Assembly (NCBI GenBank): GCA_017643325.1
Contig: JAEPNS010000060.1
Span: 1 to 13,160, forward strand
Direction: 5' to 3'
Source: Alphaproteobacteria bacterium
GTDB lineage: Bacteria; Pseudomonadota; Alphaproteobacteria; UBA6615
DNA length: 13,160 nt
The translations under genes were made by a program, and so were the position numbers. The notes below the pieces were generated by a model, which was not told the origin of the DNA, ran no database searches, and saw only the letters and a program-made list of their open reading frames with translations. Positions 3 to 13,160 of the stretch are shown in pieces (position 1 is the first letter of the stretch; every line of letters begins with the position of its first letter).

Positions 3-767
3 CACCAGTTCTGTTTCGGCGATTCCAACGGCTGTGCGTCCGGCGGCAACCTGGAGGAGGCGATCCTGCAGGGTACGCTGGAGCTGATCGAGCGTGATGC
101 GATTTCGCAGTGGTGGTACAACCGCCTGGCGCTGCCGGCGGCCGACCTGTCGGGCGTCGACACAAAGATCGTCGACTCCATGGAGCGCTACTGCAACGAG
201 CACGGCCTGACGTTCGAGGTGCTCGACCTGACCGCCGACCTTGGCATCCCCGTGGCCGCCTGCGTCACCGCCCGCGCCAGCGACGGCGGCGCGATCACCA
301 TCGGCTTCGGGGCGCATCTCGACCCGGTCGTTGCGTCGACCCGCGCGCTCACGGAGGTCAGCCAGCTGCTGCCGTTCAACGACCAGGGCGAGTTCGCGCT
401 GGACGGGGACAAGTTCACGGCCGCGAAGGACTGGTACGACACGGCGTTCCTGGAGCAGCATCCCTACCTGAAGGCGGCGGACGCTGACCGGGCGGACCTC
501 GCGCCGGGCCTCGGGGATGTGGCGTCGATCGACCAGGCGGTGCGGTTCTGCGTCGACCGGCTGGCGGAATTCGACCTCGAGCTGATCGTGCACGACTTCG
601 ACCGCAAGGACGTGCCGCTGTCGGCGGTGCGCACCGCGGTTCCGGGCATCTGCCACTTCTGGAACCGGCGCGGCAACCCGCGGCTCTACGAGGCGCCGGT
701 GCGCGCCGGTCGGCTCGACAAGCCGCTGACCGAGGACGAACTGAACCCGATCAGCTTCTACGTCTGA
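3..767 (+). CDS. YcaO-domain protein, C-terminal ~255 aa (5' end lies outside the window)
   Basis: Frame 3 is open from position 3 and is the same frame as the listed 180-767 ORF. It translates to HQFCFGDSNGCASGGNLEEAILQGTLELIERDAISQWWYN..., the characteristic YcaO ATP-binding/active-site motif (GxASGxxxEEAxLQGxxELxERDA). GC3 bias is strong. No TfuA-like or other partner gene follows; downstream is a 246-bp noncoding gap. Confidence 0.8.
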   Translation, partial: HQFCFGDSNGCASGGNLEEAILQGTLELIERDAISQWWYNRLALPAADLSGVDTKIVDSMERYCNEHGLTFEVLDLTADLGIPVAACVTARASDGGAITIGFGAHLDPVVASTRALTEVSQLLPFNDQGEFALDGDKFTAAKDWYDTAFLEQHPYLKAADADRADLAPGLGDVASIDQAVRFCVDRLAEFDLELIVHDFDRKDVPLSAVRTAVPGICHFWNRRGNPRLYEAPVRAGRLDKPLTEDELNPISFYV

Positions 768-1253: not shown

Positions 1254-1275
1254 GCTCAAGGCCGGCTCAAGGCCG
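1254..1275. repeat. Perfect tandem 11-mer (ggctcaaggcc x2) spanning the stop codon of the SPFH gene
   Basis: Direct reading: ggctcaaggcc at 1254-1264 and again at 1265-1275. Confidence 0.5.
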
Positions 1276-2634
1276 GGTCACGACCGGCGGCGCGTTGCTC
1301 GGCCGGTTCAGGTCCATCGCCGCACCGGGCGACAGCTCGGTCCCCATGTCGGCCCCCGGGTCGCTGCCCGACATCGCGGTGGTCCCGGTCGAGAGGATCT
1401 GCTGGCTCGCTTCGGGGTTGCCGCCCTGGTCGCCCGCGATCCCGAGACGGCGCAGCGTGCGCTGCCAGCTCGATTCCCGCCGGCTGTGGGAAGAACCGGA
1501 TACGCCCGGCTGCAGGTCCTGGCCGGTCTCGCTGCGCGGCTTCTGCCCGGCGTCGCCCTGGGTCTGGCCCGGGCTGTCGGACGGGTCGAGTTGCGTCCCC
1601 GACGGGGCGGCCGGGAAGGGCTGGCGGGTCGCCGGCTGGTTCATGATGTTGCGGCCGTCGTTCGGGAAGATCGGCGGCAGGCTCTGGAAGTTCGGCAGCT
1701 GGAACTGTTCGGCCGTGACCGGCGGCACCGGCTGCGGCGTGCTCGGCACGTTGGCGATGTCGCTGCCGAGGATCAGCGGCAGCTGGTCCCTGTTGCCGCC
1801 GACGACCACCACCTTGGAGTTCGGCGACTGCGAGAGCTGCACCGTCGCCTCGATGCCGCGCCAGGTGAGCAGCGTGTCGTTCAGCGCCTCGCTGACGATC
1901 GCGTAGAAGTTCCGCAGGCCGATCGCCTGCACGCGCAGGCGCTCGGCCTCGCGCTGCTCGGCGGCGATCAGGAACTCGTACCCGGCCGCGCGCTGCTCCT
2001 GCGCGAGCTTGACGTCGATGGCCGTCGCGACCTGGACCGGCAGGCGGATCTCGGTGATCACAAGGTCGTCGATGGCGATGTCCGCCGACAGGCCGTGCTG
2101 GCGCATCCGCCGCAGGATGTTCTCCTGCAGTTCGGGGTGGTCGACCGAGTAGAGCTCGTTCGAGTTGATGTGGGTGATCTCGTCACGAATGATCGAGCGG
2201 ACCAGGGGCTCGACGATGCGGGTCGGGTAGTCGAGCCCGAGGCGCGTCAGTACGTCCGGCGTGTTCTCGGAGACCGGGCGGAAGAGGGCGGCGCCCTCGA
2301 CCGTCACCCGCATGCCCTCGGCCGACAGGGCGACGACCTCGTAGGGCAGGCGCTGGGTGCGGACCTCGAACAGGAAGATCCTGTCCCAGGGCAGCTTCGC
2401 GGTCAGGCCCTCGCCGATGGTGTCGTCGAGCACCGTGCCCCCGTCGAGCAGGCTGAAGTACACGCCGACATGGCCCGGCGGGACGGTCACGAAGACGAAG
2501 CGCCACAGCACCAGCAGCAGGAAGCCGACAAGGATCGCGATGCCGACCGCCCAGGCAACGATCTTCTCGGTCCTGCCGAACAGCGGTTGCTGCCCGTTGC
2601 GGCGCGCGGCCGTATCTGCCTGTTGCGTCGTCAT
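1267..2634 (-). CDS. SPFH/band-7 (prohibitin/HflC-like) membrane protein with a ~180-aa low-complexity Pro/Gln/Gly/Ser-rich C-terminal tail
   Basis: N-terminal TM helix (IVAWAVGIAILVGFLLLVLW) followed by a band-7-like core (VPPGHVGVYFSLL...EIRLPVQVATAIDVKLAQEQRAAGYEFLIAAEQREAE). The C-terminal third is compositionally biased and disordered-looking. The start ATG (2634-2632) overlaps the upstream ABC gene stop as ATGA. Confidence 0.75.
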   Translation of the reverse strand: MTTQQADTAARRNGQQPLFGRTEKIVAWAVGIAILVGFLLLVLWRFVFVTVPPGHVGVYFSLLDGGTVLDDTIGEGLTAKLPWDRIFLFEVRTQRLPYEVVALSAEGMRVTVEGAALFRPVSENTPDVLTRLGLDYPTRIVEPLVRSIIRDEITHINSNELYSVDHPELQENILRRMRQHGLSADIAIDDLVITEIRLPVQVATAIDVKLAQEQRAAGYEFLIAAEQREAERLRVQAIGLRNFYAIVSEALNDTLLTWRGIEATVQLSQSPNSKVVVVGGNRDQLPLILGSDIANVPSTPQPVPPVTAEQFQLPNFQSLPPIFPNDGRNIMNQPATRQPFPAAPSGTQLDPSDSPGQTQGDAGQKPRSETGQDLQPGVSGSSHSRRESSWQRTLRRLGIAGDQGGNPEASQQILSTGTTAMSGSDPGADMGTELSPGAAMDLNRPSNAPPVVTRP

Positions 2635-4274
2635 CGGGTCTCCTCCCCGTCGGCGGTGCGTTCACGCGCCTGTCCGTCGACCAGCACCAGCGTGCGGTCG
2701 GCGACATGGAAATACTGATCCTCGTGGCTGACGATCACAAGGGTTCGGCCCTCGCGTTTCCACTTCGGAAGCAGCTCGTTGTAGAAGCGTTGGCGGAATT
2801 CAGGGTCCTGGTCGGCGGCCAGCTCGTCGAGCACGAGGATCGGCCGGTTTTCCAGCAGCGCAACCGCCAGCGCAAGACGCTTGCGCTGGCCGGTCGACAG
2901 GTTCGTATTCGTGAATACGCCCTCGCGGTACTGGGTCTTGTGCGCGATGCCGAGCTCGCCGAGCAGCGCGTTGACGTCGGCCTCGGGCACATGCTCGAGG
3001 CCGTAGAGGCGGTCGAACAGGTGGAAATCGCTGAACACACCCGAGAACAGCGCGCGGTAGTCGGCGACGTTGCTCTCGTCGACCGGCACGCGGTCGCGGT
3101 AGATCATGCCGGATTCCGGCTCGTACAGCCGGGTCAGCGCCTTGACCAGCGTCGACTTGCCGCTGCCGTTGCCGCCGACGAGAAACAGCATCTCGCCGCG
3201 CTGGATATGCAGGCTCGTCGGGCCCATCGTGAAGCTGCGCGCGCCGTCCGGGTCGTAGTAGCTGTAGCGCAGGTCCTCGATGTCGATCCGCTCGAACGTC
3301 TCGCCATCCTCGGGCGCGGCTTCCGGGCGCAGCGCGTCGCGCAGGAACCTCTCGACCGTGTCCAGTTCGTCGATCGCGAAATTCGCCCGGGTGATGACGG
3401 GCACGGCTTTCAGGATCACCTCGACGACCGACAGCATGAACACGGCCACGTAGACCGACTGCACGATCACCGCCTGGTCGCCCACGAAGGGCGGCAGCAC
3501 GAACGCGATCATCGCCAGCGTCGTGTAGAAGAACAGGTAGGAGACGCTGATCCCGCGATTGATCTGGATGGCGGCCTCGACCTGGGCGTTGCGAAGCATC
3601 CCGGACTCCGGGGCGAGGTGGCTGTGCTCCAGTGAATCGCCGCGCGGATGGTTGAGCTTCACTTCCTTGAAGCCGTCGATCAGGTGCCGGAACAGCGCGT
3701 AGAAGATGCCCTGCCGCTCGCTCGACGCGGTCAGGGATTCGTGCACCTGCCGCTGCGTCAGGCGGTAGAAGAAGGCGGTCAGCACGATCAGGGTCGCGAT
3801 CACCGCGAACACCAGCGGCGAGACGAGAAGGGTGTAGAAGCCCGCCAGCACCAGCGCGCCGAAGGCCGACACGCCGTGGATCGCCATGATGGCGGCCTCA
3901 GTCAGCATCTGCGAGTTGCGGGTCAGCGTGTCGTAGACCCGGTTCGGTCCGAAGCTTTCGAACCGGCCGTAGTCCGACCGCCGGACGAGGTCGGCATAAT
4001 CCCGGCGGATGCGGTCGAGCAGGTCCTCGACGATGGCCGCCGACAGGCGCTGGCCGACGGCGTTGCCGCCGATGACGCCGAACGCCACGAGTGCGAACAA
4101 AAGGAGGCCGAACAGGTCGGGTGTTGCCGTGCCGTCGGACCCGGTCTCGGGGTCCAGCACGAAGCTGATCACGACCAGCACGCCCAGCAGGCCGAAGGTG
4201 CTGGCCATCAAAGACAGGATCAGCTTGAGGCGGCGTTCCCCCGCCGCTTCCCAGACCAGCCGAATGAACTTCAC
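2631..4274 (-). CDS. Fused permease/ATPase ABC exporter of the YojI/SyrD/PvdE 'cyclic peptide transporter' type, 547 aa
   Basis: N-terminal half carries about 6 hydrophobic TM segments. C-terminal half carries Walker A GGNGSGKST, ABC signature LSTGQRKRLALAVAL and Walker B/D-loop ILVLDELAADQDPEF, which is typical of that family. The start is GTG at 4274-4272 (plus-strand cac), preceded by GAGGA 6 nt upstream on the minus strand. Confidence 0.85.
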   Translation of the reverse strand: MKFIRLVWEAAGERRLKLILSLMASTFGLLGVLVVISFVLDPETGSDGTATPDLFGLLLFALVAFGVIGGNAVGQRLSAAIVEDLLDRIRRDYADLVRRSDYGRFESFGPNRVYDTLTRNSQMLTEAAIMAIHGVSAFGALVLAGFYTLLVSPLVFAVIATLIVLTAFFYRLTQRQVHESLTASSERQGIFYALFRHLIDGFKEVKLNHPRGDSLEHSHLAPESGMLRNAQVEAAIQINRGISVSYLFFYTTLAMIAFVLPPFVGDQAVIVQSVYVAVFMLSVVEVILKAVPVITRANFAIDELDTVERFLRDALRPEAAPEDGETFERIDIEDLRYSYYDPDGARSFTMGPTSLHIQRGEMLFLVGGNGSGKSTLVKALTRLYEPESGMIYRDRVPVDESNVADYRALFSGVFSDFHLFDRLYGLEHVPEADVNALLGELGIAHKTQYREGVFTNTNLSTGQRKRLALAVALLENRPILVLDELAADQDPEFRQRFYNELLPKWKREGRTLVIVSHEDQYFHVADRTLVLVDGQARERTADGEETR

Positions 4275-4366: not shown

Positions 4367-5968
4367 CTAGAATTTGCGGCGGAGTTCCATGCGCACGCCG
4401 GCCAGATCCTCGTCGTTCTCGCGGATGCCGTACATGGCGTCGGTGCGCAGCAGCCACCGGTCGCGGCCGAAGAGGTTCATCTGGTAGCGCAGGCCGAGCG
4501 CATACTGGTCGCCGCGCGCGGCGGACGAGCGCGACATCGGCTGGACGGTGGCGAGTTCGGCAACGATCTGCCGTGACAGGTCGAACAGGTAGCTCACGCC
4601 GATCGCCCCGCCCCACGCATCGCGCGCGGTATCGTCGAGCTTGGGAAACCCCGTCAGTGCGTCGGTCTCGAAGTTGATGCCGGTGTTCTTGAGCAGCCCG
4701 TCGCCACCGCGCGCCAGCGGCTGCGGACGGTCGAGGCCGATGAAGGCGTTGAAGTAGGGAACCAGCGTCGTCGGCAGCGACGTGACGAGCGAGTTCTCCA
4801 CCAGCAGGGCCACGCCGTCGGCGGTCTGCGTCTGGTCGCCGCCGGGATCCTGTCCGACGGCCCACACGGCGCGCACCGAGTTGGACAGCCAGCCGCCGTA
4901 GCGCTTGGTCCAGGCGCCAACGAAGTTATGGTAGCTGAAGTCGCCCTGGGGCCGGTCGCGGGTATCGTCGGTATAGCCCCAGCCCGCCTCCAGGTGGCCC
5001 TCCCGCATGTCGGCGAAGGTCACGACACCGACCACGTTGCCTGCATGGTCGGCGAGCGCGCCGTCGTCGTCCACGAGCGCCGCGCTCGAGACCTTGTCGA
5101 CACCGCCGAAGAAGGTGATGTCGTAGTTGGAGATATCCAGCCGGCGCGAGTTGCGTGCGGTGAGCGCAAACGCGCCGCCGACGAACGCGTCGTCGACCCA
5201 GATGCCGTTCTGGAAGAACATCGGAACAAGCCCGAAGGTGAACGGCAGGTCCCAGCTCGTGTATTCGTCCGACAGGCCGGTGTAGATGGCGCCGAGGTCG
5301 CCTTCGAAGAAGAAGTTCTCGACATTGGCGTCGAGGATCAGGTCGCCCTGGTCGCGGTCGTTGCCGGCGAACTCGTAGCGCGTGAACTGCCCGCCCTGGT
5401 CGACCGGCCGGAAGAAGGCGTGCAGCCGCTCCGTCGCCGTCAGTTTCAGGTCCACATCGAGGTTGAGCCGCGTGGCGACGAGCCCGGTTTCGGTGTCGCC
5501 GTTGTCGTTGAAGGCGACGGCGGTGCGCCAGTCGCCATAGACCAGAAGCTGCGGCCGGACGAGATTCTTCGCCCCGACCAGGTCATGGCCGGCGCCGATC
5601 GGGCCCTCGCGGTATTGCGGGTATCCGAACTCGAGCACCGGGCGCGGCGTGGTCACCGCGCGCTTGCCGCCGTAGATCTCGAGTTGTGCCTCGACGTCGT
5701 ATGGCTCGTCCGGGTAGGTCGGGTCCGGCCGGTAGTCTTCGGCATCGTGCGAGGAGCGCCGGACGGCGGGGTCCATCTCCGGCGGTGCCTGGTGGCCCTC
5801 ATGCTCCGGGCTGCCGGTGCGCTCCTCCTGGAGTTCCGGCGGCGGCGCGCCGCGGCGCGGGGTCTGCGCGGTCTCGATGACAGTCTGGGCGACGGCGCTG
5901 CCGGCGACAAGAAGCGCGGCGGCCAGGGCTGCGGCCGGGGCCGATCGTTTCATGGTGTCCAACATCAC
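4367..5968 (-). CDS. Putative outer-membrane beta-barrel (porin-like) protein, 533 aa. Has a Sec signal peptide and a disordered acidic/Pro/His-rich N-terminal extension.
   Basis: Signal peptide MKRSAPAAALAAALLVAGSAVAQ. The body has alternating hydrophobic/polar residues with abundant Gly/Asp/Asn/Tyr. It ends in ...RMELRRKF with a terminal Phe, typical of OM beta-barrels. The start overlaps the stop of the upstream cytochrome gene (ATGA at 5965-5968). Confidence 0.6.
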   Translation of the reverse strand: MMLDTMKRSAPAAALAAALLVAGSAVAQTVIETAQTPRRGAPPPELQEERTGSPEHEGHQAPPEMDPAVRRSSHDAEDYRPDPTYPDEPYDVEAQLEIYGGKRAVTTPRPVLEFGYPQYREGPIGAGHDLVGAKNLVRPQLLVYGDWRTAVAFNDNGDTETGLVATRLNLDVDLKLTATERLHAFFRPVDQGGQFTRYEFAGNDRDQGDLILDANVENFFFEGDLGAIYTGLSDEYTSWDLPFTFGLVPMFFQNGIWVDDAFVGGAFALTARNSRRLDISNYDITFFGGVDKVSSAALVDDDGALADHAGNVVGVVTFADMREGHLEAGWGYTDDTRDRPQGDFSYHNFVGAWTKRYGGWLSNSVRAVWAVGQDPGGDQTQTADGVALLVENSLVTSLPTTLVPYFNAFIGLDRPQPLARGGDGLLKNTGINFETDALTGFPKLDDTARDAWGGAIGVSYLFDLSRQIVAELATVQPMSRSSAARGDQYALGLRYQMNLFGRDRWLLRTDAMYGIRENDEDLAGVRMELRRKF

Positions 5969-7821
5969 TGAATCTCGAACTCGACCGCGTAGGGATGGAT
6001 GTCGATCATCCAGTCGTTGATCCGTTCCTCCATCTCGCGCGTCGCGCCGACGAAGCGCATGAAGTAGATGGGCTCGGCGCGCGAGCGCATGCGCACCTGC
6101 AGCTTGTAGGTACCGGGCTTGGTCAGCAGTTCGCCGGGCACCTCGTACTCCGCGTCACGCCAGCCGAGCGGCGGGATCGAGCGGCCCTCCATGCGCACGA
6201 AGGGCGGATGGTTCAGCACCGTCGTCGGCAGGTTGGCCGGGCGCAGGAATGGCAGCTGGTCGATGTCGAACTGCACCGGCAGGTACATTTCCCGGTCCGT
6301 GCCCTTGACGTTGGTGGTCAGGAACTTGGTCTGCAGGTTGAAGAGCTGGTCGTCATGCTCGATCGTGCCCGCCGCGACGTCGAGCGAATGCAGGTCCGCC
6401 ATGTCGCCGAGGGAGTCGACGTAGCCCGATTCCCAGATGTTCTTGCCGTCAGGGTCGAGCAGCGCGACGTTCAGCCAGATCTCGGGCTGCGCGCCCAGCG
6501 AACCCGAGGGCAGGTTGTGGCCCTTGTCGGTGTTCGTGACCCGGTAGCGGAAACTGAAATCCCGGCCGAGGCGCGGCGCGCCGTCGTCGAAGAAGGGCCC
6601 GTCGATCCGGCTGCCGTTCTCCATCACGGCGAGGCGGTCGCGGCGCTTGTCCTCCAGCAGCTTCTCGTTCTGCTGGATCACGAAGCGGGCGAACATGCGG
6701 TCATCGCGCTTGCGCCAGACGTCCGGGAAGTCCGGCGTCGCGATCTCGCCGTCACGCAGCCGGTTCTCCCACTCGGCCAGGCCCCACCCGGCGCGGTAGT
6801 CGAAGGTGAGCCATTCCTTGATCGACCAGCGCAGGCCGCGCGGATTGAACGGGAACAGGCCCGGATGCGAGATCGGGTAGCCGGGACCGTAGAAGGCGTG
6901 GTTCGAATGGCGCGCGTTCGGGTCGCCGATCACGCGGCCGTTGACGATCGCGACCGGCCACTCCGCATAGCCCTTCGCCTCGCCCGGCACCTTGCCCATG
7001 TGGCATTCCTGGCACGTGACGCCGGCCTCCGCGGCGGGGCTGTCGCGATACTGCTCCCACACGACCTCGAGCTTGATGCCGAGGTTGACGGCCACCTGGT
7101 GGCAGGACACGCAGAACTGGGATTCGCCGATCTGCTCGAACTCGATGGCGCCGAGGTGAATCTTCGCGCCGTCGGGGTCTTCCTGGGTTGCGACCTTGTA
7201 CTCGTCCGGATTGCTGAGCACGTTCTCGAGATTGTCGGCGCGCCCGATGCCGTAGACCGGCTGCTCGATCGGGCCGGGCTCGATGTGGCGCTCGCCGTTC
7301 ACCTTGCCGAATTCCGCGCCGACGCGGTGGCAGGTGACGCAGGTGATGCCCTCGCGCGCGACGATCGAGCGCTCCCACAGCGGCTTTTCGCGGGCCTCGC
7401 CGCGCTGGGTGCCGACCTGCTGGTGGCAGCGCACGCAGAACGCGCCGATCGTGCCGGACGACAGGTCGTTGATGGCCTGCTCGAACTTGTGGAACATCGG
7501 CGAGATCGACGCGTAGGCGTGGTTCGATGACGCCCACTCCGTGAAGATCTTCTGGTGGCACCGCCCGCAGGTCACGGCCGACGGAAACTCGGTCTCCTCA
7601 AACAGGGCCCGGTGCGGGTCCTTGCCCTCGGTCAGTGTCGACGCGGTCTGGTAGGCCGCCGGCACGTCGCTGCCGTCCGGCGCCGGCGCGAACCAGATCT
7701 GCGACGGGGGCAGCTCGTCCACCGTCATCGCGGTGTCGGAGATGGCCGGCGTCGCGCCGGAGAAAAGAAGGGCGGCGCCGAAGAGGAGCCAGGGGGAATT
7801 GAATTGGCGAAGCACGGGCAC
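5965..7821 (-). CDS. Pentaheme c-type cytochrome, 618 aa; periplasmic, with a heme-free C-terminal ~350 aa
   Basis: Sec-type signal (LLFGAALLFSGA). Five CXXCH motifs (CGRCH, CVRCH, CVTCH, CVSCH, CQECH) all lie in the first ~270 aa. The start is GTG at 7821-7819 (plus-strand cac), 3 nt after the stop of the upstream cytochrome gene, consistent with termination-reinitiation. Confidence 0.85.
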   Translation of the reverse strand: MPVLRQFNSPWLLFGAALLFSGATPAISDTAMTVDELPPSQIWFAPAPDGSDVPAAYQTASTLTEGKDPHRALFEETEFPSAVTCGRCHQKIFTEWASSNHAYASISPMFHKFEQAINDLSSGTIGAFCVRCHQQVGTQRGEAREKPLWERSIVAREGITCVTCHRVGAEFGKVNGERHIEPGPIEQPVYGIGRADNLENVLSNPDEYKVATQEDPDGAKIHLGAIEFEQIGESQFCVSCHQVAVNLGIKLEVVWEQYRDSPAAEAGVTCQECHMGKVPGEAKGYAEWPVAIVNGRVIGDPNARHSNHAFYGPGYPISHPGLFPFNPRGLRWSIKEWLTFDYRAGWGLAEWENRLRDGEIATPDFPDVWRKRDDRMFARFVIQQNEKLLEDKRRDRLAVMENGSRIDGPFFDDGAPRLGRDFSFRYRVTNTDKGHNLPSGSLGAQPEIWLNVALLDPDGKNIWESGYVDSLGDMADLHSLDVAAGTIEHDDQLFNLQTKFLTTNVKGTDREMYLPVQFDIDQLPFLRPANLPTTVLNHPPFVRMEGRSIPPLGWRDAEYEVPGELLTKPGTYKLQVRMRSRAEPIYFMRFVGATREMEERINDWMIDIHPYAVEFEIQ

Positions 7822-7824
7822 GTC

Positions 7825-9126
7825 CTAGTTCAGGTAATCCCGGAGTTTGGCGAGCGCGCTGCGGAAGCCGCTCGATGAGTAGCGGGTCGGGGACTCGGTG
7901 GCCTCGTAGAGGCTTTCGAGTTGCTGCGGCGCGGACCGTCCGAGGGAATCGAGCAGCGCCGCGGCGGCCATGGTGGCCTGTTCGGCGGCGCCGAAGTCGA
8001 CATAGTCCGAGGAATGATCGCGCGATACGAGGGTCGCGAGGGTTGCCTTGAGGTCGGCTTCGCGCAGCGGGTTCTCGACGAGGTTCCGGGTCATGCCGTC
8101 GACCGTGCCCGCGAGCGTGTCAGCCGCGCGCGCCACGGCCGACGCACCCTGGCGGGTGGCGCGGTGCAGGGCGCGGGTCTGTGACTTGAGCGTGTCCGCC
8201 AGCTTGGAATCGCGTCCCTCGGCGATCGCGCGGAGCATCACGAGGTTCGCGTCGTAGAGCTGCGGTTCGCCGGGACCGAGGCCGACACCGGGCTGCGGCG
8301 ACCATTTCGCGTTCGTGTAGGAGTGATGGCAGCTGCCGCACTCGAAGAAGGTGAACTCGGGGAACAGGTGGTTGCGTCCGCGCATGGACTTCGCGAGCGC
8401 GCGCAGCTGGTTGCCGGCGGCGACGGCCTGGCCGATGGCCCACAGGTTTGCCCCGTCCGTCACCGGCTTGCGCTGGCGGTAGTCGTCGTCGATGCGCACA
8501 TGGGCCGGCTGGTTTATGGAGAAGGTGTCGAGCTCGAAGGACAGGCGCGGATGGCCCGCGGCCATCAGGCGGTGCGACACGATCCGGTCCGGGTTGGCCT
8601 GGTGGCATCCGAGGCAGAGTTCCGCCCGCTTCACCGGGTCGTCGGTCGGGTACATGCCCAGCGAGACCAGTGTCGGCCGGTCGCTCAGGCCGCTGACGTG
8701 GGTGCCGAGCCAGTTCTCCGCCCCGCCGTGACAGCTCTCGCAGCCGACACCGCTGGTGATGTCGAAATTGTTGCCGCGCCGGTCTTCGGACACATTGTCC
8801 GCGTGGCACTGCAGGCAGGTCCCGGATTCATGGGCGGCGCCGATCCCCAGCCGCGCGGCGATGCGCTTTCCCCGGTCCGACTGGAGCGCCTTGTAGGCAC
8901 CGGAATGCGCGTCGTGCGTGCTCCAGACAACAAACTCGTTCTGCAACACGACCGAGTTCTGCCAAGGCTGCACCGCGCCGTGACAGGTCGAGGCGGCACA
9001 GGTCTGCACGCCGAGATGGATCGCGCCGTTGTCCTGCGCGAGCGCCTGGTTTGACGTGAACGAAAGTCCGAAAATCAGCGCCGCAACGAACAGGTCGCGA
9101 ACGGCGCGTGCCCCTTGAAAATTCAT
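7825..9126 (-). CDS. Multiheme c-type cytochrome, 433 aa: 4 canonical CXXCH plus one CX4CH, with an Ala-rich helical C-terminal half
   Basis: Signal peptide ending ...SNQALAQ. Motifs CAASTCH (CX4CH), CLQCH, CESCH, CLGCH, CGSCH. The CAASTCH motif was verified by reverse-complementing 8980-9000. First gene of the minus operon that starts at the 9127-9284 divergent region. Confidence 0.85.
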   Translation of the reverse strand: MNFQGARAVRDLFVAALIFGLSFTSNQALAQDNGAIHLGVQTCAASTCHGAVQPWQNSVVLQNEFVVWSTHDAHSGAYKALQSDRGKRIAARLGIGAAHESGTCLQCHADNVSEDRRGNNFDITSGVGCESCHGGAENWLGTHVSGLSDRPTLVSLGMYPTDDPVKRAELCLGCHQANPDRIVSHRLMAAGHPRLSFELDTFSINQPAHVRIDDDYRQRKPVTDGANLWAIGQAVAAGNQLRALAKSMRGRNHLFPEFTFFECGSCHHSYTNAKWSPQPGVGLGPGEPQLYDANLVMLRAIAEGRDSKLADTLKSQTRALHRATRQGASAVARAADTLAGTVDGMTRNLVENPLREADLKATLATLVSRDHSSDYVDFGAAEQATMAAAALLDSLGRSAPQQLESLYEATESPTRYSSSGFRSALAKLRDYLN

Positions 9127-9210
9127 TTTTGCCCCGACCGCTGCCCTGCGGCCCCTTCGCGTTCGATTTCGGAACGGTAACCCAGTATACTCAAATCAGT
9201 TTGTTGGTGT

Positions 9211-9226
9211 AGTGATTCGTATCACA
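9211..9226. promoter_or_regulatory. Candidate CRP/FNR-family operator (aGTGAttcgtaTCACa) in the divergent promoter region between the cytochrome operon and the flavo-FeS operon
   Basis: 16-mer agtgattcgtatcaca matches TGTGA-N6-TCACA with one mismatch. Its core GTGAT-N4-ATCAC is a perfect palindrome resembling the FNR box TTGAT-N4-ATCAA. It is centred ~66 bp upstream of the 9285 start and ~92 bp upstream of the 9126 start. The surrounding 9127-9284 region is the most AT-rich stretch in the locus. Confidence 0.4.
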
Positions 9227-9284
9227 CCCTTCGGCTTGGGCAGCCGGCAGGGTTATTGTAAGGGAGCGGGCCGCCTCAAGGCCC

Positions 9285-11678
9285 GTGGGTTCTGGGGAGA
9301 GTTTCGGGGGCGTGTCTCAGGTTCAGGTCGCCATCGTGGGTTCGGGTCCGGCAGGATTGAGCGCCGGCGCGCGCGCGGCCGTGCGCGGCCTGTCGCATGT
9401 CGTTCTCGAGCGGACCGAGCAGCCGAGCAACACGATCTTCCGCTTCCAGAAGGGTAAGCATGTCATGGCGCAGCCGGCGCACACGCCGCTGCGCAGCGAG
9501 ATCCCGTTCGAGGACGGACGCCGCGAGGATGTGCTCGCGGCCTGGCTTGCCCGCGCGGAAGAACTCGGGGTCAATTTCCGGTTCAATTCCGAGGTCACCG
9601 GCATCACCGGGAGCCGGGGCGATTTCGTCATTTCGCTCGCCGACGGCGAGGAGGTGCGCGCCGAGACGGTCGTGCTTGCCGTCGGACTGCAGGGCAACCT
9701 GAACAAGCTGCGCGTGCCCGGCGCCGAGCTGCCGCATGTCGGCTACCAGCTCGACGATCCCGACGAATTCGAGCATGAGCGGATCGCCGTGATCGGCGGC
9801 GGCGACGCCTCGATCGAGAACGCGCTCGCGCTGGCGGAGCACAACGAGGTCACGATCATCAACCGCTCGGACGAGTTCGCCCGGGCGAAGTCCGCCAACG
9901 AGAGCGCGATCCTCGCCGCGATCGAGTCGGGACGGATGGACGTGGCCTACAACGCGAACACGATCGCGATCGAGCCGGACACGCTGGTGCTCGAGACGCC
10001 CGAGGGCGAGGCGCGCATTCCCTGCGAGCGGATCATCGCGCGTCTCGGCGCGGCGCCGCCGCGCAAGCTGGTCGAGGCCTGCGGCGTGGAATTCCCGACG
10101 GAGGAACGCAACGCGCTGCCGGAGGTCTCCCCGCAGTACGAATCGAACGTGCCCGGGCTGTACGTCGTCGGTGCGCTCGGCGGGTTCCCGCTGATCAAGC
10201 AGGCCCTCAACCAGGGCTACGAGGTCATCGAGCATATCGTCGGGGAGGATGTGGAACCGGCGGACGCGCCGCTGCTGCGCGAGAAAATCTCCGCGGCGCA
10301 GGGCTGGGACGTCGACGGCTTCCTCGAGGCGGTGCGCACGCGTGTCCCGATCTTCGCCGAGCTCAATGCGCTGGTCCTTCGCGACACGATGCTCGAGTCC
10401 GAGGTGCACAGTTTCACGGACGGCGAGATCGTGTTCCGCCGGAACGACTACACCAACAGCCTGTATGTGGTCATCGAGGGCGCGGTGCGGATCCATCTCG
10501 ACGACGAGATGCCGCCGAAGGCGAGCGTGCAGCTGGGGCAGGGCGCCTTCTTCGGAGAGATGGGCCTGATTTCCGGCCGCCGGCGCAACGCGACCGTGTC
10601 CGCGATCGGCAACGCGCTGCTCCTCGAGGTGCCGCGGCGGCGGATGATCACCTTGCGGGCGAGCGTACCGTCGGTCCGCGAGGCGATGGACCGCGAGGCG
10701 GTGGCACGCTCGATCCAGTCGCACCTCGCGCCGGGTCTCGACCGCGACAGCATCGACGACATCGCGGCCGCGGCCACGATCCACAACTGGTCGAAGGGTC
10801 AGGTTCTGTTCAGCGAGGGCGAGGAGGGCGACAGCCTGCACCTCATCCGCCGCGGCTCGGTGCTCGTGCGCAAGAAGATCGGCGACCACGACGTCGTCCT
10901 GAACTATGTGGCGGCCGGCAACTATGTGGGCGAGATGGCGCTGGTCAGCGGCGAGCCGCGCAACGCGACCGTCGCGGCGGCCGCCGACTGCGAGACCATC
11001 CGCATCGAGCGCGACGACTTCAACCGGCTGATGGACCGCCACCCCGACCTGCGCACCGAGATCGAGCAGGTGCGCGAGGCGCGCGCCGCGATCACCGCCC
11101 GCATGGCCGAGAGCCCGGACCAGGGCAGCCTGATCGAGTTCCTGGTCGACCAGGGCGGCAAGGAAGCCACCGACATCCTGCTGATCGACGAGTCCCTGTG
11201 CGTCGGCTGCGACAACTGCGAGAAAGCCTGCGCCGGCACCCACGGCGGCATCACGCGGCTCGACCGCGAGGCGGGGCCGACCTACGCCGACATGCACGTG
11301 CCGACATCCTGCCGGCACTGCGAGCATCCGCACTGCATGAGCGACTGCCCGCCCGACGCCATCAAGCGCGCGATGGGCGGCGAGGTCTACATCACCGATG
11401 CCTGCATCGGCTGCGGCAACTGCCAGCGCAATTGCCCCTACGACGTGATCCAGATGGCGAACCCGCAGATGGGCGAGCGCGGCTGGCTCGCGAGCCTGCT
11501 CGGCGGCATGGCCGGCAAGCGCGCCGAGGTGTCCGACGGGCCCAAGCAGGCCGTGAAGTGCGACATGTGCCTCGACATCGACGGCGGCCCGGCCTGCGTG
11601 CGGGCCTGCCCGACCGGCGCGGCAATCCGCGTCCATCCGTCCGAGGTTATCGAGCTCGTGACCGGGAGCGGGCGATGA
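9285..11678 (+). CDS. Multidomain redox protein, 797 aa: FAD/NAD(P)-binding oxidoreductase (two Rossmann motifs, no CXXC), then two tandem cNMP-binding domains, then a NrfC/FdnH/PsrB-like four-cluster [4Fe-4S] ferredoxin module
   Basis: VAIVGSGPAGL (FAD GxGxxG) and VIGGGDASIENA (NAD(P) motif). Two cNMP-binding signatures: FGEMGLISGRRRNATV and VGEMALVSGEPRNATV. Four Cys clusters: CVGCDNCEKAC, CRHCEHPHCMSDCP, CIGCGNCQRNCP and CDMC...ACVRACPTGA. No signal peptide, so it is cytoplasmic. The GTG start at 9285 is uncertain; GTG at 9312 (VSQVQVAIVG...) is an alternative. Confidence 0.8.
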   Translation: MGSGESFGGVSQVQVAIVGSGPAGLSAGARAAVRGLSHVVLERTEQPSNTIFRFQKGKHVMAQPAHTPLRSEIPFEDGRREDVLAAWLARAEELGVNFRFNSEVTGITGSRGDFVISLADGEEVRAETVVLAVGLQGNLNKLRVPGAELPHVGYQLDDPDEFEHERIAVIGGGDASIENALALAEHNEVTIINRSDEFARAKSANESAILAAIESGRMDVAYNANTIAIEPDTLVLETPEGEARIPCERIIARLGAAPPRKLVEACGVEFPTEERNALPEVSPQYESNVPGLYVVGALGGFPLIKQALNQGYEVIEHIVGEDVEPADAPLLREKISAAQGWDVDGFLEAVRTRVPIFAELNALVLRDTMLESEVHSFTDGEIVFRRNDYTNSLYVVIEGAVRIHLDDEMPPKASVQLGQGAFFGEMGLISGRRRNATVSAIGNALLLEVPRRRMITLRASVPSVREAMDREAVARSIQSHLAPGLDRDSIDDIAAAATIHNWSKGQVLFSEGEEGDSLHLIRRGSVLVRKKIGDHDVVLNYVAAGNYVGEMALVSGEPRNATVAAAADCETIRIERDDFNRLMDRHPDLRTEIEQVREARAAITARMAESPDQGSLIEFLVDQGGKEATDILLIDESLCVGCDNCEKACAGTHGGITRLDREAGPTYADMHVPTSCRHCEHPHCMSDCPPDAIKRAMGGEVYITDACIGCGNCQRNCPYDVIQMANPQMGERGWLASLLGGMAGKRAEVSDGPKQAVKCDMCLDIDGGPACVRACPTGAAIRVHPSEVIELVTGSGR

Positions 11679-12511
11679 GCGCGGCACCCCTGCACAGCGG
11701 GTTCCTGACCCACAAGCGGATGATGTTCGCCTGGCTGGCGCTGCTGCTCGTGCTCGCCGTCGCCGCGGCCTGGTACTGGCAGGAGATGCTGCCGCCGTCG
11801 GCGGTGGATCTCGGGTTCAGCTACGGGCTGGGGACGCTGGCACTTGTGATCATGCTCTGGCTGACATGGTTCGGCGTGCGCAAGCGCAGCTACGCGAAAG
11901 GGGCGGGGCGGCTGAAGGCGTGGCTGTCGGCGCATGTCTATCTCGGCCTGTCGCTGGTGTTCCTCGTGCCGCTGCACGGCGGCTTCACCATCGCGCCGGA
12001 CATCCACGGGATCGCCTATGTCCTCGTGCTGGTCACGGTCTTCACCGGCCTGTTCGGGGTCGCGTTCTACGGTTTCTACCCCCGCCGGGTGACCGCGAAC
12101 CGCGAGGGACTGACCTTCGACGCGATGCTCAAGCGGATCGCGGAGATCGACATCGAGCTGCGCGGCCTGTCGACCCAGCTGTCGGAGGCGGCCAACAACA
12201 TCGTGCGCCGCGAGGCGGAATCGGGCCGCATCGGAGGCGGCGTGGGAATCCTGTTCGCCCGGCCGATCAACAAGGCACGGCGCGCACGCCAGGCGCTGCT
12301 GCGGCTCAACCTCGACTCCGACGCGGGCAACCGCGCGGCGGCGCTGCTCGAGAGCAAGGCGGCCGTGGTCGACAGGCTGCAGCGCGATATCCAGATGCGC
12401 TCGCGCCTGCGGGCGTGGCTGCTGCTCCATGTGCCGCTGTCGCTTGCGACCCTCGCGGCGGTGATCGCCCACGCGGCGGGCATGCTCATGTTCGGCCTCG
12501 GATCGGTGTAA
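11675..12511 (+). CDS. Integral membrane protein (~5 TM, 278 aa) with two His-x13-His pairs in TM helices; candidate diheme cytochrome b membrane anchor
   Basis: ATG at 11675 overlaps the upstream stop (ATGA at 11675-11678). The six-frame track's 11198 start lies inside the upstream gene and is rejected. TM3 WLSAHVYLGLSLVFLVPLHGG and TM5 LLLHVPLSLATLAAVIAHAAG each carry two His 14 residues apart, as in bis-heme b ligation of cytochrome b/FdnI-type subunits. A ~130-aa Arg/Ala-rich soluble region lies between TM4 and TM5. Confidence 0.7.
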   Translation: MSAAPLHSGFLTHKRMMFAWLALLLVLAVAAAWYWQEMLPPSAVDLGFSYGLGTLALVIMLWLTWFGVRKRSYAKGAGRLKAWLSAHVYLGLSLVFLVPLHGGFTIAPDIHGIAYVLVLVTVFTGLFGVAFYGFYPRRVTANREGLTFDAMLKRIAEIDIELRGLSTQLSEAANNIVRREAESGRIGGGVGILFARPINKARRARQALLRLNLDSDAGNRAAALLESKAAVVDRLQRDIQMRSRLRAWLLLHVPLSLATLAAVIAHAAGMLMFGLGSV

Positions 12512-12517
12512 CCGGCC

Positions 12518-13160
12518 ATGCGCGTCCTCGTCACACACCGCCTGCGCCGCACCCGCCGGGAAGGCTATGTCGAGCGCTCCGAGACGCTCGAGGGCGAAAC
12601 CATCCGGATCGGGCGCGGCTCGGATGTCGAGCTGCACCTGCCGGACGGGCGCGTCCTCCTGCACCATGCCACTCTCGCGGTCGAGAACGGCGAGCTGATG
12701 CTGCGCGCGGACCCGAGCGCGGAGATCGAGCTCGACGGCATCCCGGTGGATATCGCCCAGCTCACGCCGGGCCGCACCGTCGCCGTCGGCCCGTACGACA
12801 TTACCTGCGGCGAAGCTGTCGAGGGCCACGACGCCTGTATCAGTGTCGAGCTCGCGCGCCCCATGGGCGATGCCGAGACGATCGTGCGCGAGCGCGTCCG
12901 CACGCCCCTGCTGTCGCGTTCACGCAGCGGATGGGCGCTCGGCGGCCTGCTGGGGCTGGTGCTGCTGGTCGTCGGCGTGGGCATCCCGCTGAGCTCGTTC
13001 CTCGGCGAGCGCGAGACGCAGCGCGTCGCGACCGACGCGGGCGAGACCGACATCATGCGGATGGCGGAGAGCATGTGGCTGACCGAGCAGCTCTCGAGCG
13101 TGCATGACAACCTCGAGGCCGGCTGCCAGGCCTGCCATGTCACGCCCTTTGCGACCGTCG
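12518..13160 (+). CDS. Partial CDS (3' end outside the window): FHA-like N-terminal domain, one TM helix, then an extracytoplasmic region containing a CXXCH heme-binding motif
   Basis: It is absent from the six-frame track because there is no stop before the window end, but frame 2 is open from ATG 12518 to 13160 with strong GC3 bias. N-terminus ETIRIGRGSDVELHLPDGRVLLHHATLAVENGELMLRADPSAEIELDGIPV resembles an FHA fold (GR...SR.HA pattern). TM helix WALGGLLGLVLLVVGVGIPLSSFL. CQACH lies near the window end. Confidence 0.6.
   Translation, partial: MRVLVTHRLRRTRREGYVERSETLEGETIRIGRGSDVELHLPDGRVLLHHATLAVENGELMLRADPSAEIELDGIPVDIAQLTPGRTVAVGPYDITCGEAVEGHDACISVELARPMGDAETIVRERVRTPLLSRSRSGWALGGLLGLVLLVVGVGIPLSSFLGERETQRVATDAGETDIMRMAESMWLTEQLSSVHDNLEAGCQACHVTPFATV

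Follow-up and report, generated by a model that had tools for sequence, protein, structure and literature searches.

We analysed the whole of contig JAEPNS010000060.1 (assembly GCA_017643325.1), a stretch of 13,160 nt with a G+C content of ~68% from an alphaproteobacterial metagenome-assembled genome (MAG), which is called the window here. At its end lies the open reading frame (ORF) 12518–13160, the 5' part of a gene for a protein in which a forkhead-associated (FHA)-like domain is joined through a single transmembrane (TM) helix to a domain with a CXXCH haem attachment motif. This FHA-TM-CXXCH architecture is confirmed beyond chance, and the gene is a member of a recently noticed, functionally uncharacterised family, an architecture that has already been described with its gene neighbours in Ferrigenium. 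Within a conserved inner-membrane redox module of three genes the protein would be the periplasmic 'wire', its partners being a 5-TM protein and a flavo-Fe-S protein. We see an even chance that these form a three-subunit inner-membrane electron-transfer module in which the FHA-like domain acts as a phospho-independent cytoplasmic docking piece.

The ORF starts with an ATG at 12518, 6 nt past the stop codon of the upstream gene (12509–12511), and stays open over 214 codons to the last base of the contig. In the NCBI annotation it appears as 'hypothetical protein JJ899_05350, partial'. High-GC DNA yields many long shadow ORFs and a single CXXCH of this gene is visible in the window, which might speak for a spurious ORF with an accidental haem motif. 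However, the GC content at the three codon positions (0.74/0.48/0.91) shows the coding-type third-position pattern of the window's other real genes. Furthermore, 820 homologues with conserved architecture were found at E ≤ 1e-3, the CXXCH is invariant in the family and such a motif arose by chance in only 0.19% of shuffles (372 out of 200,000 shuffles of the 214 amino acids). Through the homologue search and an intact orthologue at the locus L012 the idea of a spurious ORF is refuted, and we regard it as practically excluded. The antisense ORF 12565–13143, with codon-position GC values of 0.47/0.73/0.91, was discarded as a GC-rich shadow frame.

For the N-terminal domain, the best single Pfam match is Yop-YscD_cpl (PF16697) over residues 23–93, with 28.3 bits against a cutoff of 33.2. 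FHA (PF00498) matches the same residues with 20.2 bits (E 8.4e-4) against a cutoff of 20.7. A poor score with an FHA model had been named in the preliminary description as a result that would speak against this domain; the single sequence is borderline, neither clearly poor nor above the cutoff, and the assignment holds at the level of profile and structure. A profile built from 62 family members matches the FHA domain of GarA with E 3.9e-9, and at E ≤ 1e-3 the Pfam models Yop-YscD_cpl and FHA are found in 50 and 41 of these 62 members, respectively (best FHA E 8.6e-9). In the AlphaFold2 (AF2) model, calculated with the family alignment, residues 1–115 are all-beta with a predicted local distance difference test (pLDDT) value of ~97. 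A Foldseek search of this model against the PDB returned exclusively FHA domains or FHA-containing proteins among the top 50 (GarA, OdhI, Rv0020c and Rv1747), with probability 1.00 and target TM-scores of 0.6–0.75 for chains consisting of an isolated FHA domain. Model and search agree with an 11-stranded FHA beta-sandwich. As judged from the predicted structure, the assignment of residues 1–115 to the FHA fold is sound. A precomputed Pfam FHA match is missing in the window's own clade (proteins 55–83% identical) and present in most of the distant members; it appears that the FHA domain has diverged further here than in the remainder of the family.

Residues ~139–162 are the only strongly hydrophobic segment (Kyte-Doolittle peak 2.44), in agreement with the single TM helix of the preliminary description. 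Five K/R precede this helix, and two K/R together with four D/E follow it. Because of these positive-inside flanks the orientation is predicted to be N-in/C-out; the FHA-like domain is therefore cytoplasmic, and the C-terminal part is on the outer side of the membrane, where c-type haem has to be attached. A signal peptide is absent from the protein. Thus, the two statements made beforehand on sidedness, a cytoplasmic FHA fold and a c-type haem motif on the extracytoplasmic side, both stand. None of 141 family sequences deviates at C203, C206 and H207 of this motif or at H196 upstream of it. The motif is found ~40 residues past the TM helix, behind a linker which is poorly conserved and has low model confidence.

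The window itself covers 12 residues of the haem domain, the first haem motif among them. The syntenic L012 orthologue (10843–12582) is 83% identical over all 214 residues and has 579 amino acids with 10 CXXCH motifs, the length range of orthologues being 576–579 amino acids. Exactly 10 CXXCH were counted in 123 out of 132 full-length representatives, and 129 have ten if CX3-4CH variants are included; nearly all of them possess a single TM helix at ~140–162. Besides the CXXCH His, ten further His are near-invariant in the family, and the sequences suggest ten bis-His haems in the intact relatives. A frameshift-corrected relative matches Cytochrome_C7 and Cytochrom_c3_2 with 66.8 and 43.4 bits (cutoffs 24.8 and 25), and the two models are found in 61 and 59 of the 62 family members, in agreement with a class III (c3/c7-type) multihaem cytochrome c. 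For the window gene a decahaem domain is predicted from its orthologues. This substantiates the earlier expectation of further haems downstream. A stop just past the window, which would have left an isolated chance CXXCH, can be rejected, as we infer from the orthologues that the frame runs on to ~579 codons.

The family is large. An exhaustive phmmer search gave the 820 representatives mentioned above, 405 of them at E ≤ 1e-10; the family comprises at least 405 clusters at 50% identity, from Alpha-, Beta- and Gammaproteobacteria. Among the taxa are alphaproteobacterial MAGs, Azospirillaceae, Nisaea, Zavarzinia, Granulosicoccaceae and Usitatibacteraceae; an isolate of Erythrobacter colymbi (locus L013) was reached through its 5-TM partner gene. 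The names given in the source entries are generic ('cytochrome c3 family protein', 'FHA domain-containing protein', 'pSer/pThr/pTyr-binding forkhead associated (FHA) protein'), and NCBIfam holds no specific model for the FHA-cytochrome, for the 5-TM protein or for a 533-amino-acid protein encoded in the window. A word-indexed search had found two close homologues only, both from assemblies that are frameshifted in the FHA-cytochrome gene. The intact syntenic cluster on the megabase contig L012 was located by a search with the 278-amino-acid neighbour protein. Two apparent full-length relatives, P0002 (308 amino acids) and P0003 (204 amino acids), had to be dismissed, as three-frame translation of L001 and L002 showed frameshifts that split a gene of ~550–580 codons. 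These frameshifts, at L001 9892–11540 and L002 282–1528, are apparently assembly errors, P0002 and P0003 hence truncated artefacts; in L001 the flavoprotein and 433-amino-acid cytochrome genes are likewise split. A contig scan with the reconstructed protein gave only multihaem proteins of Saprospiraceae/Bacteroidetes with 25–28% identity over the haem region, which are uninformative for the FHA fusion.

Conservation of the flanking genes provides the second line of evidence. In the window, the flavo-Fe-S gene, the 5-TM gene and the FHA-cytochrome gene follow each other in this order on the same strand (Table 1). The 5-TM gene is located directly upstream of the cytochrome gene at 11 out of 11 loci: the window, L001, L002, L010 (partial), L011 to L015, P0008 and Ferrigenium, the last of these taken from the literature. 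Wherever upstream DNA exists, this gene of ~280 codons ends 5–11 nt before the cytochrome gene. It is itself preceded by a gene for an ~800-amino-acid flavo-cNMP-Fe-S protein (cNMP, cyclic nucleoside monophosphate) in eight of the nine sequenced loci that extend far enough, and the flavoprotein stop overlaps the 5-TM start in the window, L012, L013 and L014, the loci where this could be checked. The genes of the triad are translationally coupled.

The 5-TM protein (AF2 model pLDDT 85.6) has a cytoplasmic helical insert of ~110 residues between TM4 and TM5. H87 and H101 in TM3, H252 and H266 in TM5, and also H111 are invariant in 35 sequences down to 34% identity. The His on the two helices form pairs 14 residues apart, H87/H101 and H252/H266, and the positive-inside topology puts H87 and H252 close to the cytoplasmic side of the membrane and H101 and H266 close to its periplasmic side. 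Two b haems stacked one above the other, each with bis-His ligation, have this arrangement; in cytochrome b of the bc1 complex the spacing is likewise 14/14. Pfam matches to cytochrome b561 (PF01292) were obtained for 27 of the 35 sequences (best E 3.5e-8) and to Ferric_reduct for ten. For the 5-TM protein, no Foldseek match in the PDB had an E value under 0.4, and a sequence profile against the PDB gave coiled-coil noise only. Taken together, the fold searches are supportive of a dihaem b protein, short of decisive, and judged by its sequence this partner is probably a dihaem b-type cytochrome. The flavoprotein of the window has two Rossmann motifs and matches to Pyr_redox_2/3 and YpdA-like models. 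As these come without a CxxC, it resembles ferredoxin-NADP reductases of the thioredoxin reductase (TrxR) type. It further contains two domains for cNMP binding and, at the C-terminus, a domain in which four [4Fe-4S] Cys motifs are complete (16 Cys).

A full-text literature search returned two relevant reports only, a preprint on Ferrigenium and a pangenome study of Gallionellaceae. In Ferrigenium straubiae, a nonahaem cytochrome ('NHC') with a cytosolic FHA domain, one TM helix, periplasmic haems and no signal peptide is described (bioRxiv 10.64898/2026.01.22.701106, section 6.3.2). It adjoins a 5-TM protein and a [4Fe-4S] protein, its function is left unassigned there and the combination of FHA with multihaem is called previously unreported (same preprint). 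Counting the haems of the orthologues, the window presents the same triad, an FHA domain, one TM helix and 9–10 haems beside a 5-TM and a [4Fe-4S] protein, and it is by this architecture and synteny that we liken the two. The NHC belongs to a Gallionellaceae Fe(II) oxidiser, our gene to an alphaproteobacterial MAG; nine haems are counted in the former, whereas the family of the window gene has ten. The preprint sees no recognisable redox motif in the 5-TM protein and favours a CymA/NrfH-like quinone link, in contrast to the four-His pattern and the b561 matches reported here. The second report lists cluster 403 of the Gallionellaceae pangenome, 'Forkhead-associated protein', with 10 CXXCH in 27 genomes (PMC10734462, Table 1). 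This cluster shares the FHA annotation and the number of haem motifs with our family and is likened by description, the table entry being without topology, neighbours or function; members of this 'Forkhead' cluster were not found in the supplements of that study. The combination of domains had been regarded as unusual beforehand. This is true of the literature, given the wording of the 2026 preprint, but not of sequence space, where it characterises a large conserved family.

It had also been suggested that the protein feeds phospho-signalling into a periplasmic cytochrome, and a nearby gene for a Ser/Thr kinase or phosphatase had been named as something to look for. In such a scheme the FHA-like domain would bind phosphothreonine (pThr) on a partner or on a distantly encoded kinase and thereby switch the assembly or activity of the haem wire. 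The fold is truly FHA, its nearest structures are pThr-binding domains (GarA, OdhI, FhaA and Rv1747), and the Pfam FHA matches in 41 of the 62 members point in the same direction. We compared the pThr site by alignments to Rv1747 FHA-2 and GarA and by column statistics over the 141 sequences. The Gly-Arg of the beta3–beta4 loop is kept, with G32 in 141/141 and the phosphate-binding R33 in 135/141 (96%), as are the FHA His (H50, 106/141), the Asn-Gly turn and the Gly-Asp...Gly; the conserved residues cluster on the canonical binding loops. However, only 11 sequences have the Ser with which the S-R-x-H motif contacts the phosphate, the position being taken by Ala in 47, Leu in 32 and Pro in 16 of the 141 (Leu47 in the window protein), and the Arg following it is replaced by Leu in 112/141. 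The peptide-contacting SxNG loop (beta6–beta7) is shortened or deleted and unconserved in the alignments to both reference proteins. Furthermore, it is the window's own clade that scores lowest on FHA models, and a gene for a Pkinase or PP2C protein was found neither in the window nor within 8–10 kb at the eight relatives' loci listed. In L013 (Erythrobacter colymbi), the next gene after that of the FHA-cytochrome codes for a Metallophos (calcineurin-like) phosphoesterase (10673–11566). No other phosphatase-like neighbour was seen at any locus, and this one speaks for phospho-regulation. Overall, the phospho-signalling input is not supported. Judged by sequence, canonical pThr recognition by this domain is unlikely, and a phospho-regulated cytochrome is an unlikely reading as well. 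The same loop face carries the conserved residues R45 (108/141) and Asp43. This conserved basic face suggests a specific ligand, possibly an acidic or phosphorylated group.

The other suggestion in the preliminary description was a scaffold for an electron conduit. It agrees with the conserved gene neighbourhood far better than phospho-signalling does and is the one we favour. The functional steps beyond the domain content are inference. The products of the triad would form one inner-membrane complex, in which the 5-TM protein would carry two b haems, one near each membrane face (held by His87 and His252 inside, by His101 and His266 outside), and pass electrons across the membrane. The path would connect, in this order, cytoplasmic NAD(P)H, flavin adenine dinucleotide (FAD) and the four [4Fe-4S] clusters, the dihaem b protein, the decahaem c domain, the secreted 433- and 618-amino-acid cytochromes and a 533-amino-acid outer-membrane candidate. 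An outward flow, i.e. a regulated electron outlet, would be the thermodynamically simpler of the two directions. Docking is the most economical role for the FHA-like domain because it is on the same side of the membrane as the flavoprotein and the 5-TM insert. By analogy with YscD and GarA, its Arg33/Asp43/Arg45 face may hold the cytochrome to either the flavo-Fe-S subunit or the insert that the 5-TM protein has on the cytoplasmic side. In GarA, the pThr face also serves to bind enzyme partners that are not phosphorylated, and the FHA domain of YscD, in which a canonical pThr site is missing, provides a platform for docking.

Some observations weigh against this docking module. L011 is without a flavoprotein gene at the corresponding position, R33 and the conserved R45 on the canonical peptide-binding face could form a phospho- or acidic-ligand pocket, and the haem domain of the window gene is seen only up to its first motif. 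Two further explanations have to be considered. The hypothesis favoured in the Ferrigenium preprint (bioRxiv 10.64898/2026.01.22.701106) for its FHA-bearing NHC would have the cytochrome act on its own as a quinol dehydrogenase or quinone reductase, like CymA, NrfH and NapC, the 5-TM protein being just a structural platform and the FHA domain an unrelated regulator. One TM helix followed by periplasmic haems is indeed the topology of these enzymes, and there is a weak profile match to NrfH (E 0.02). However, neither the protein nor its orthologues match PF03264 significantly, the first haem motif follows ~40 residues past the TM helix whereas haem 1 of NrfH is at the membrane surface, and the four-His pattern and b561 matches of the obligatory neighbour offer a better membrane redox site. 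We consider this type of enzyme improbable here. Alternatively, the FHA domain could serve localisation or oligomerisation, for instance by gathering the conduit into clusters or by bringing in some unrelated cytoplasmic protein, with no docking to the triad partners. That membrane-tethered FHA domains (YscD, EssC, TagH) act in assembly would be in line with this, as would Yop-YscD_cpl being the best Pfam match. The strict coupling to two partner genes, however, suggests a complex of fixed stoichiometry, and the neighbourhoods contain no other conserved cytoplasmic candidate; such a role is therefore quite improbable.

The docking module can be compared with several known systems. The triad would be like Hmc, Tmc, DsrMKJOP and FdnGHI in combining a periplasmic multihaem c protein, a haem-b membrane subunit and a four-cluster ferredoxin-like protein; in FdnGHI these are represented by the four-cluster FdnH and the dihaem b protein FdnI. 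NCBIfam gives weak matches to HmcA, HmcB, DsrO and HydN, all far under the family cutoffs. In contrast to the triad, these systems have no FHA domain, and the Fe-S domain of the triad is cytoplasmic and fused to an NAD(P)H flavoprotein with two cNMP domains. By profile, the C-terminal part of the family matches the c7-polymer GSU1996 (3ov0) with E 1.5e-15, and TIGR04257 (nanowire_3heme) is approached with 38.4 bits against a cutoff of 40. GSU1996 differs in being a soluble periplasmic protein with twelve haems and neither TM helix nor FHA domain. The proteins NapC, NirT, CymA and NrfH are likewise single-TM-anchored periplasmic multihaem cytochromes of the inner membrane, but they are tetrahaem, with the TM helix at the extreme N-terminus and no cytoplasmic domain, whereas 138 residues precede the helix here. 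Membership in NapC/NirT was rejected, as neither the target nor the reconstructed relative nor any of the 62 family members gave a significant PF03264 match. With YscD/SctD of the type III secretion system (T3SS) the protein shares the FHA fold, the single TM helix and the order of these with a periplasmic domain. A YscD/SctD assignment was discarded in view of the PF16697 score of 28.3 against 33.2, a haem domain in place of ring-building motifs and the lack of T3SS genes in the window. Among solved structures, the FHA domain comes closest to GarA and OdhI, FHA regulators of actinobacteria, which also give its best profile match. Both are soluble single-domain proteins in which the Ser/Asn pThr site is intact and the N-terminal tail can be phosphorylated; the target has neither such a site nor such a tail.

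Nine real genes were called in the window on the basis of codon-position GC, ORF translations and Pfam. They are listed in Table 1 together with the features of the FHA-cytochrome.

Table 1. Genes of the 13,160-nt window and features of the FHA-cytochrome (positions on the forward strand)
Feature	Position	Strand	Remarks
YcaO protein, C-terminal part	3–767	+	cut by contig start
SPFH/Band-7 protein	1267–2634	-	low-complexity tail of ~200 residues
ABC exporter	2631–4274	-	
533-aa secreted protein without family match	4367–5968	-	signal peptide, C-terminal Phe
618-aa secreted pentahaem cytochrome	5965–7821	-	weak similarity to ExtKL, DmsE, GSU2203
433-aa secreted multihaem cytochrome	7825–9126	-	4 CXXCH + 1 CX4CH; Cytochrome_C554-like
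797-aa FAD / 2x cNMP / Fe-S protein	9285–11678	+	divergent from cytochrome genes
278-aa 5-TM membrane protein	11675–12511	+	start overlaps upstream stop (ATGA)
FHA-TM-multihaem cytochrome c gene, 5' 214 codons	12518–13160	+	cut by contig end
FHA-like beta-sandwich, residues 1–115	12518–12862	+	cytoplasmic (predicted)
Invariant G32-R33	12611–12616	+	in FHA-like domain
Single TM helix, residues ~139–162	12932–13003	+	invariant Pro157; N-in/C-out (predicted)
His196	13103–13105	+	family-invariant; candidate distal haem ligand before first haem motif
CQACH, residues 203–207	13124–13138	+	first c-type haem attachment motif; first of ten in orthologues

The genes for the YcaO protein, the ABC exporter and the SPFH/Band-7 protein may belong to a cluster of the type that makes ribosomally synthesised and post-translationally modified peptides (RiPP), unrelated to the FHA-cytochrome. 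Of the secreted proteins encoded on the reverse strand, the 433-amino-acid cytochrome is a candidate periplasmic partner. Its CX4CH motif reads CAASTCH, and homologues of it recur near the triad in distant relatives (P0008 locus and L011). The 533-amino-acid protein ends in ...RRKF, its gene overlaps the end of the 618-amino-acid cytochrome gene by 4 nt, and it is conserved in L001 and L012 (532 amino acids). Neither Pfam nor NCBIfam gave a match for this protein, which may be a novel outer-membrane barrel of a porin-cytochrome conduit. In distant relatives a different set of accessory genes is located by the triad (L011 11728–19539, L013 11742–16864, L014 9804–15585, L015 3005–10742), coding for ~650-amino-acid HbpS-like proteins, ~610-amino-acid proteins without family match and ~1300-amino-acid multihaem/LVIVD-repeat proteins. 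As the accessory genes differ, the core triad seems to plug into alternative outer modules.

The divergent intergenic region 9127–9284 separates the operon of the cytochromes and the outer-membrane candidate from that of the flavoprotein, the 5-TM protein and the FHA-cytochrome. It contains a CRP-type palindrome, aGTGA-TTCGTA-TCACa, at 9211–9226 (core 9212–9225). GTGA-N6-TCAC occurs a single time in the window, against an expectation of 0.17, and alignment of the intergenic regions shows it unchanged in L012 and L001. In these two closest relatives, genes for a CHASE2-adenylate/guanylate cyclase and a CHAT-domain protease are found just downstream of the cytochrome gene (L001 12587–16981, L012 13553–17956), and the cyclase may supply the ligand that the cNMP domains of the flavoprotein bind. 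Together, the cNMP domains, the CHASE2 cyclase of L001 and L012 and the palindrome suggest a regulation by cyclic nucleotides. More tentatively, the three proteins could work as an NAD(P)H:periplasmic-cytochrome oxidoreductase gated by cyclic nucleotides, a bacterial analogue of NADPH oxidases (NOX) or ferric reductases that is independent of the quinone pool and feeds a porin-cytochrome conduit, with the FHA domain as the cytoplasmic clamp between the periplasmic haem wire and the dehydrogenase; we regard this extended version as possible though rather doubtful.

To the existing description, our analysis adds the size and breadth of the family, its fixed number of ten haems and the degenerate pThr site. 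It also adds the four-His and b561 evidence that the 5-TM protein is probably a dihaem b cytochrome, and it shows the Fe-S partner to be a flavoprotein of the NAD(P)H type with cNMP domains. Since cultured hosts exist (Erythrobacter, Zavarzinia), the hypothesis of the triad is directly testable. The crossing of the inner membrane by electrons is among the least resolved steps of extracellular electron transfer and of neutrophilic Fe(II) oxidation. If the triad is a real complex, it would represent a new class of inner-membrane electron gate and a clear case of an FHA fold outside Ser/Thr-kinase signalling.

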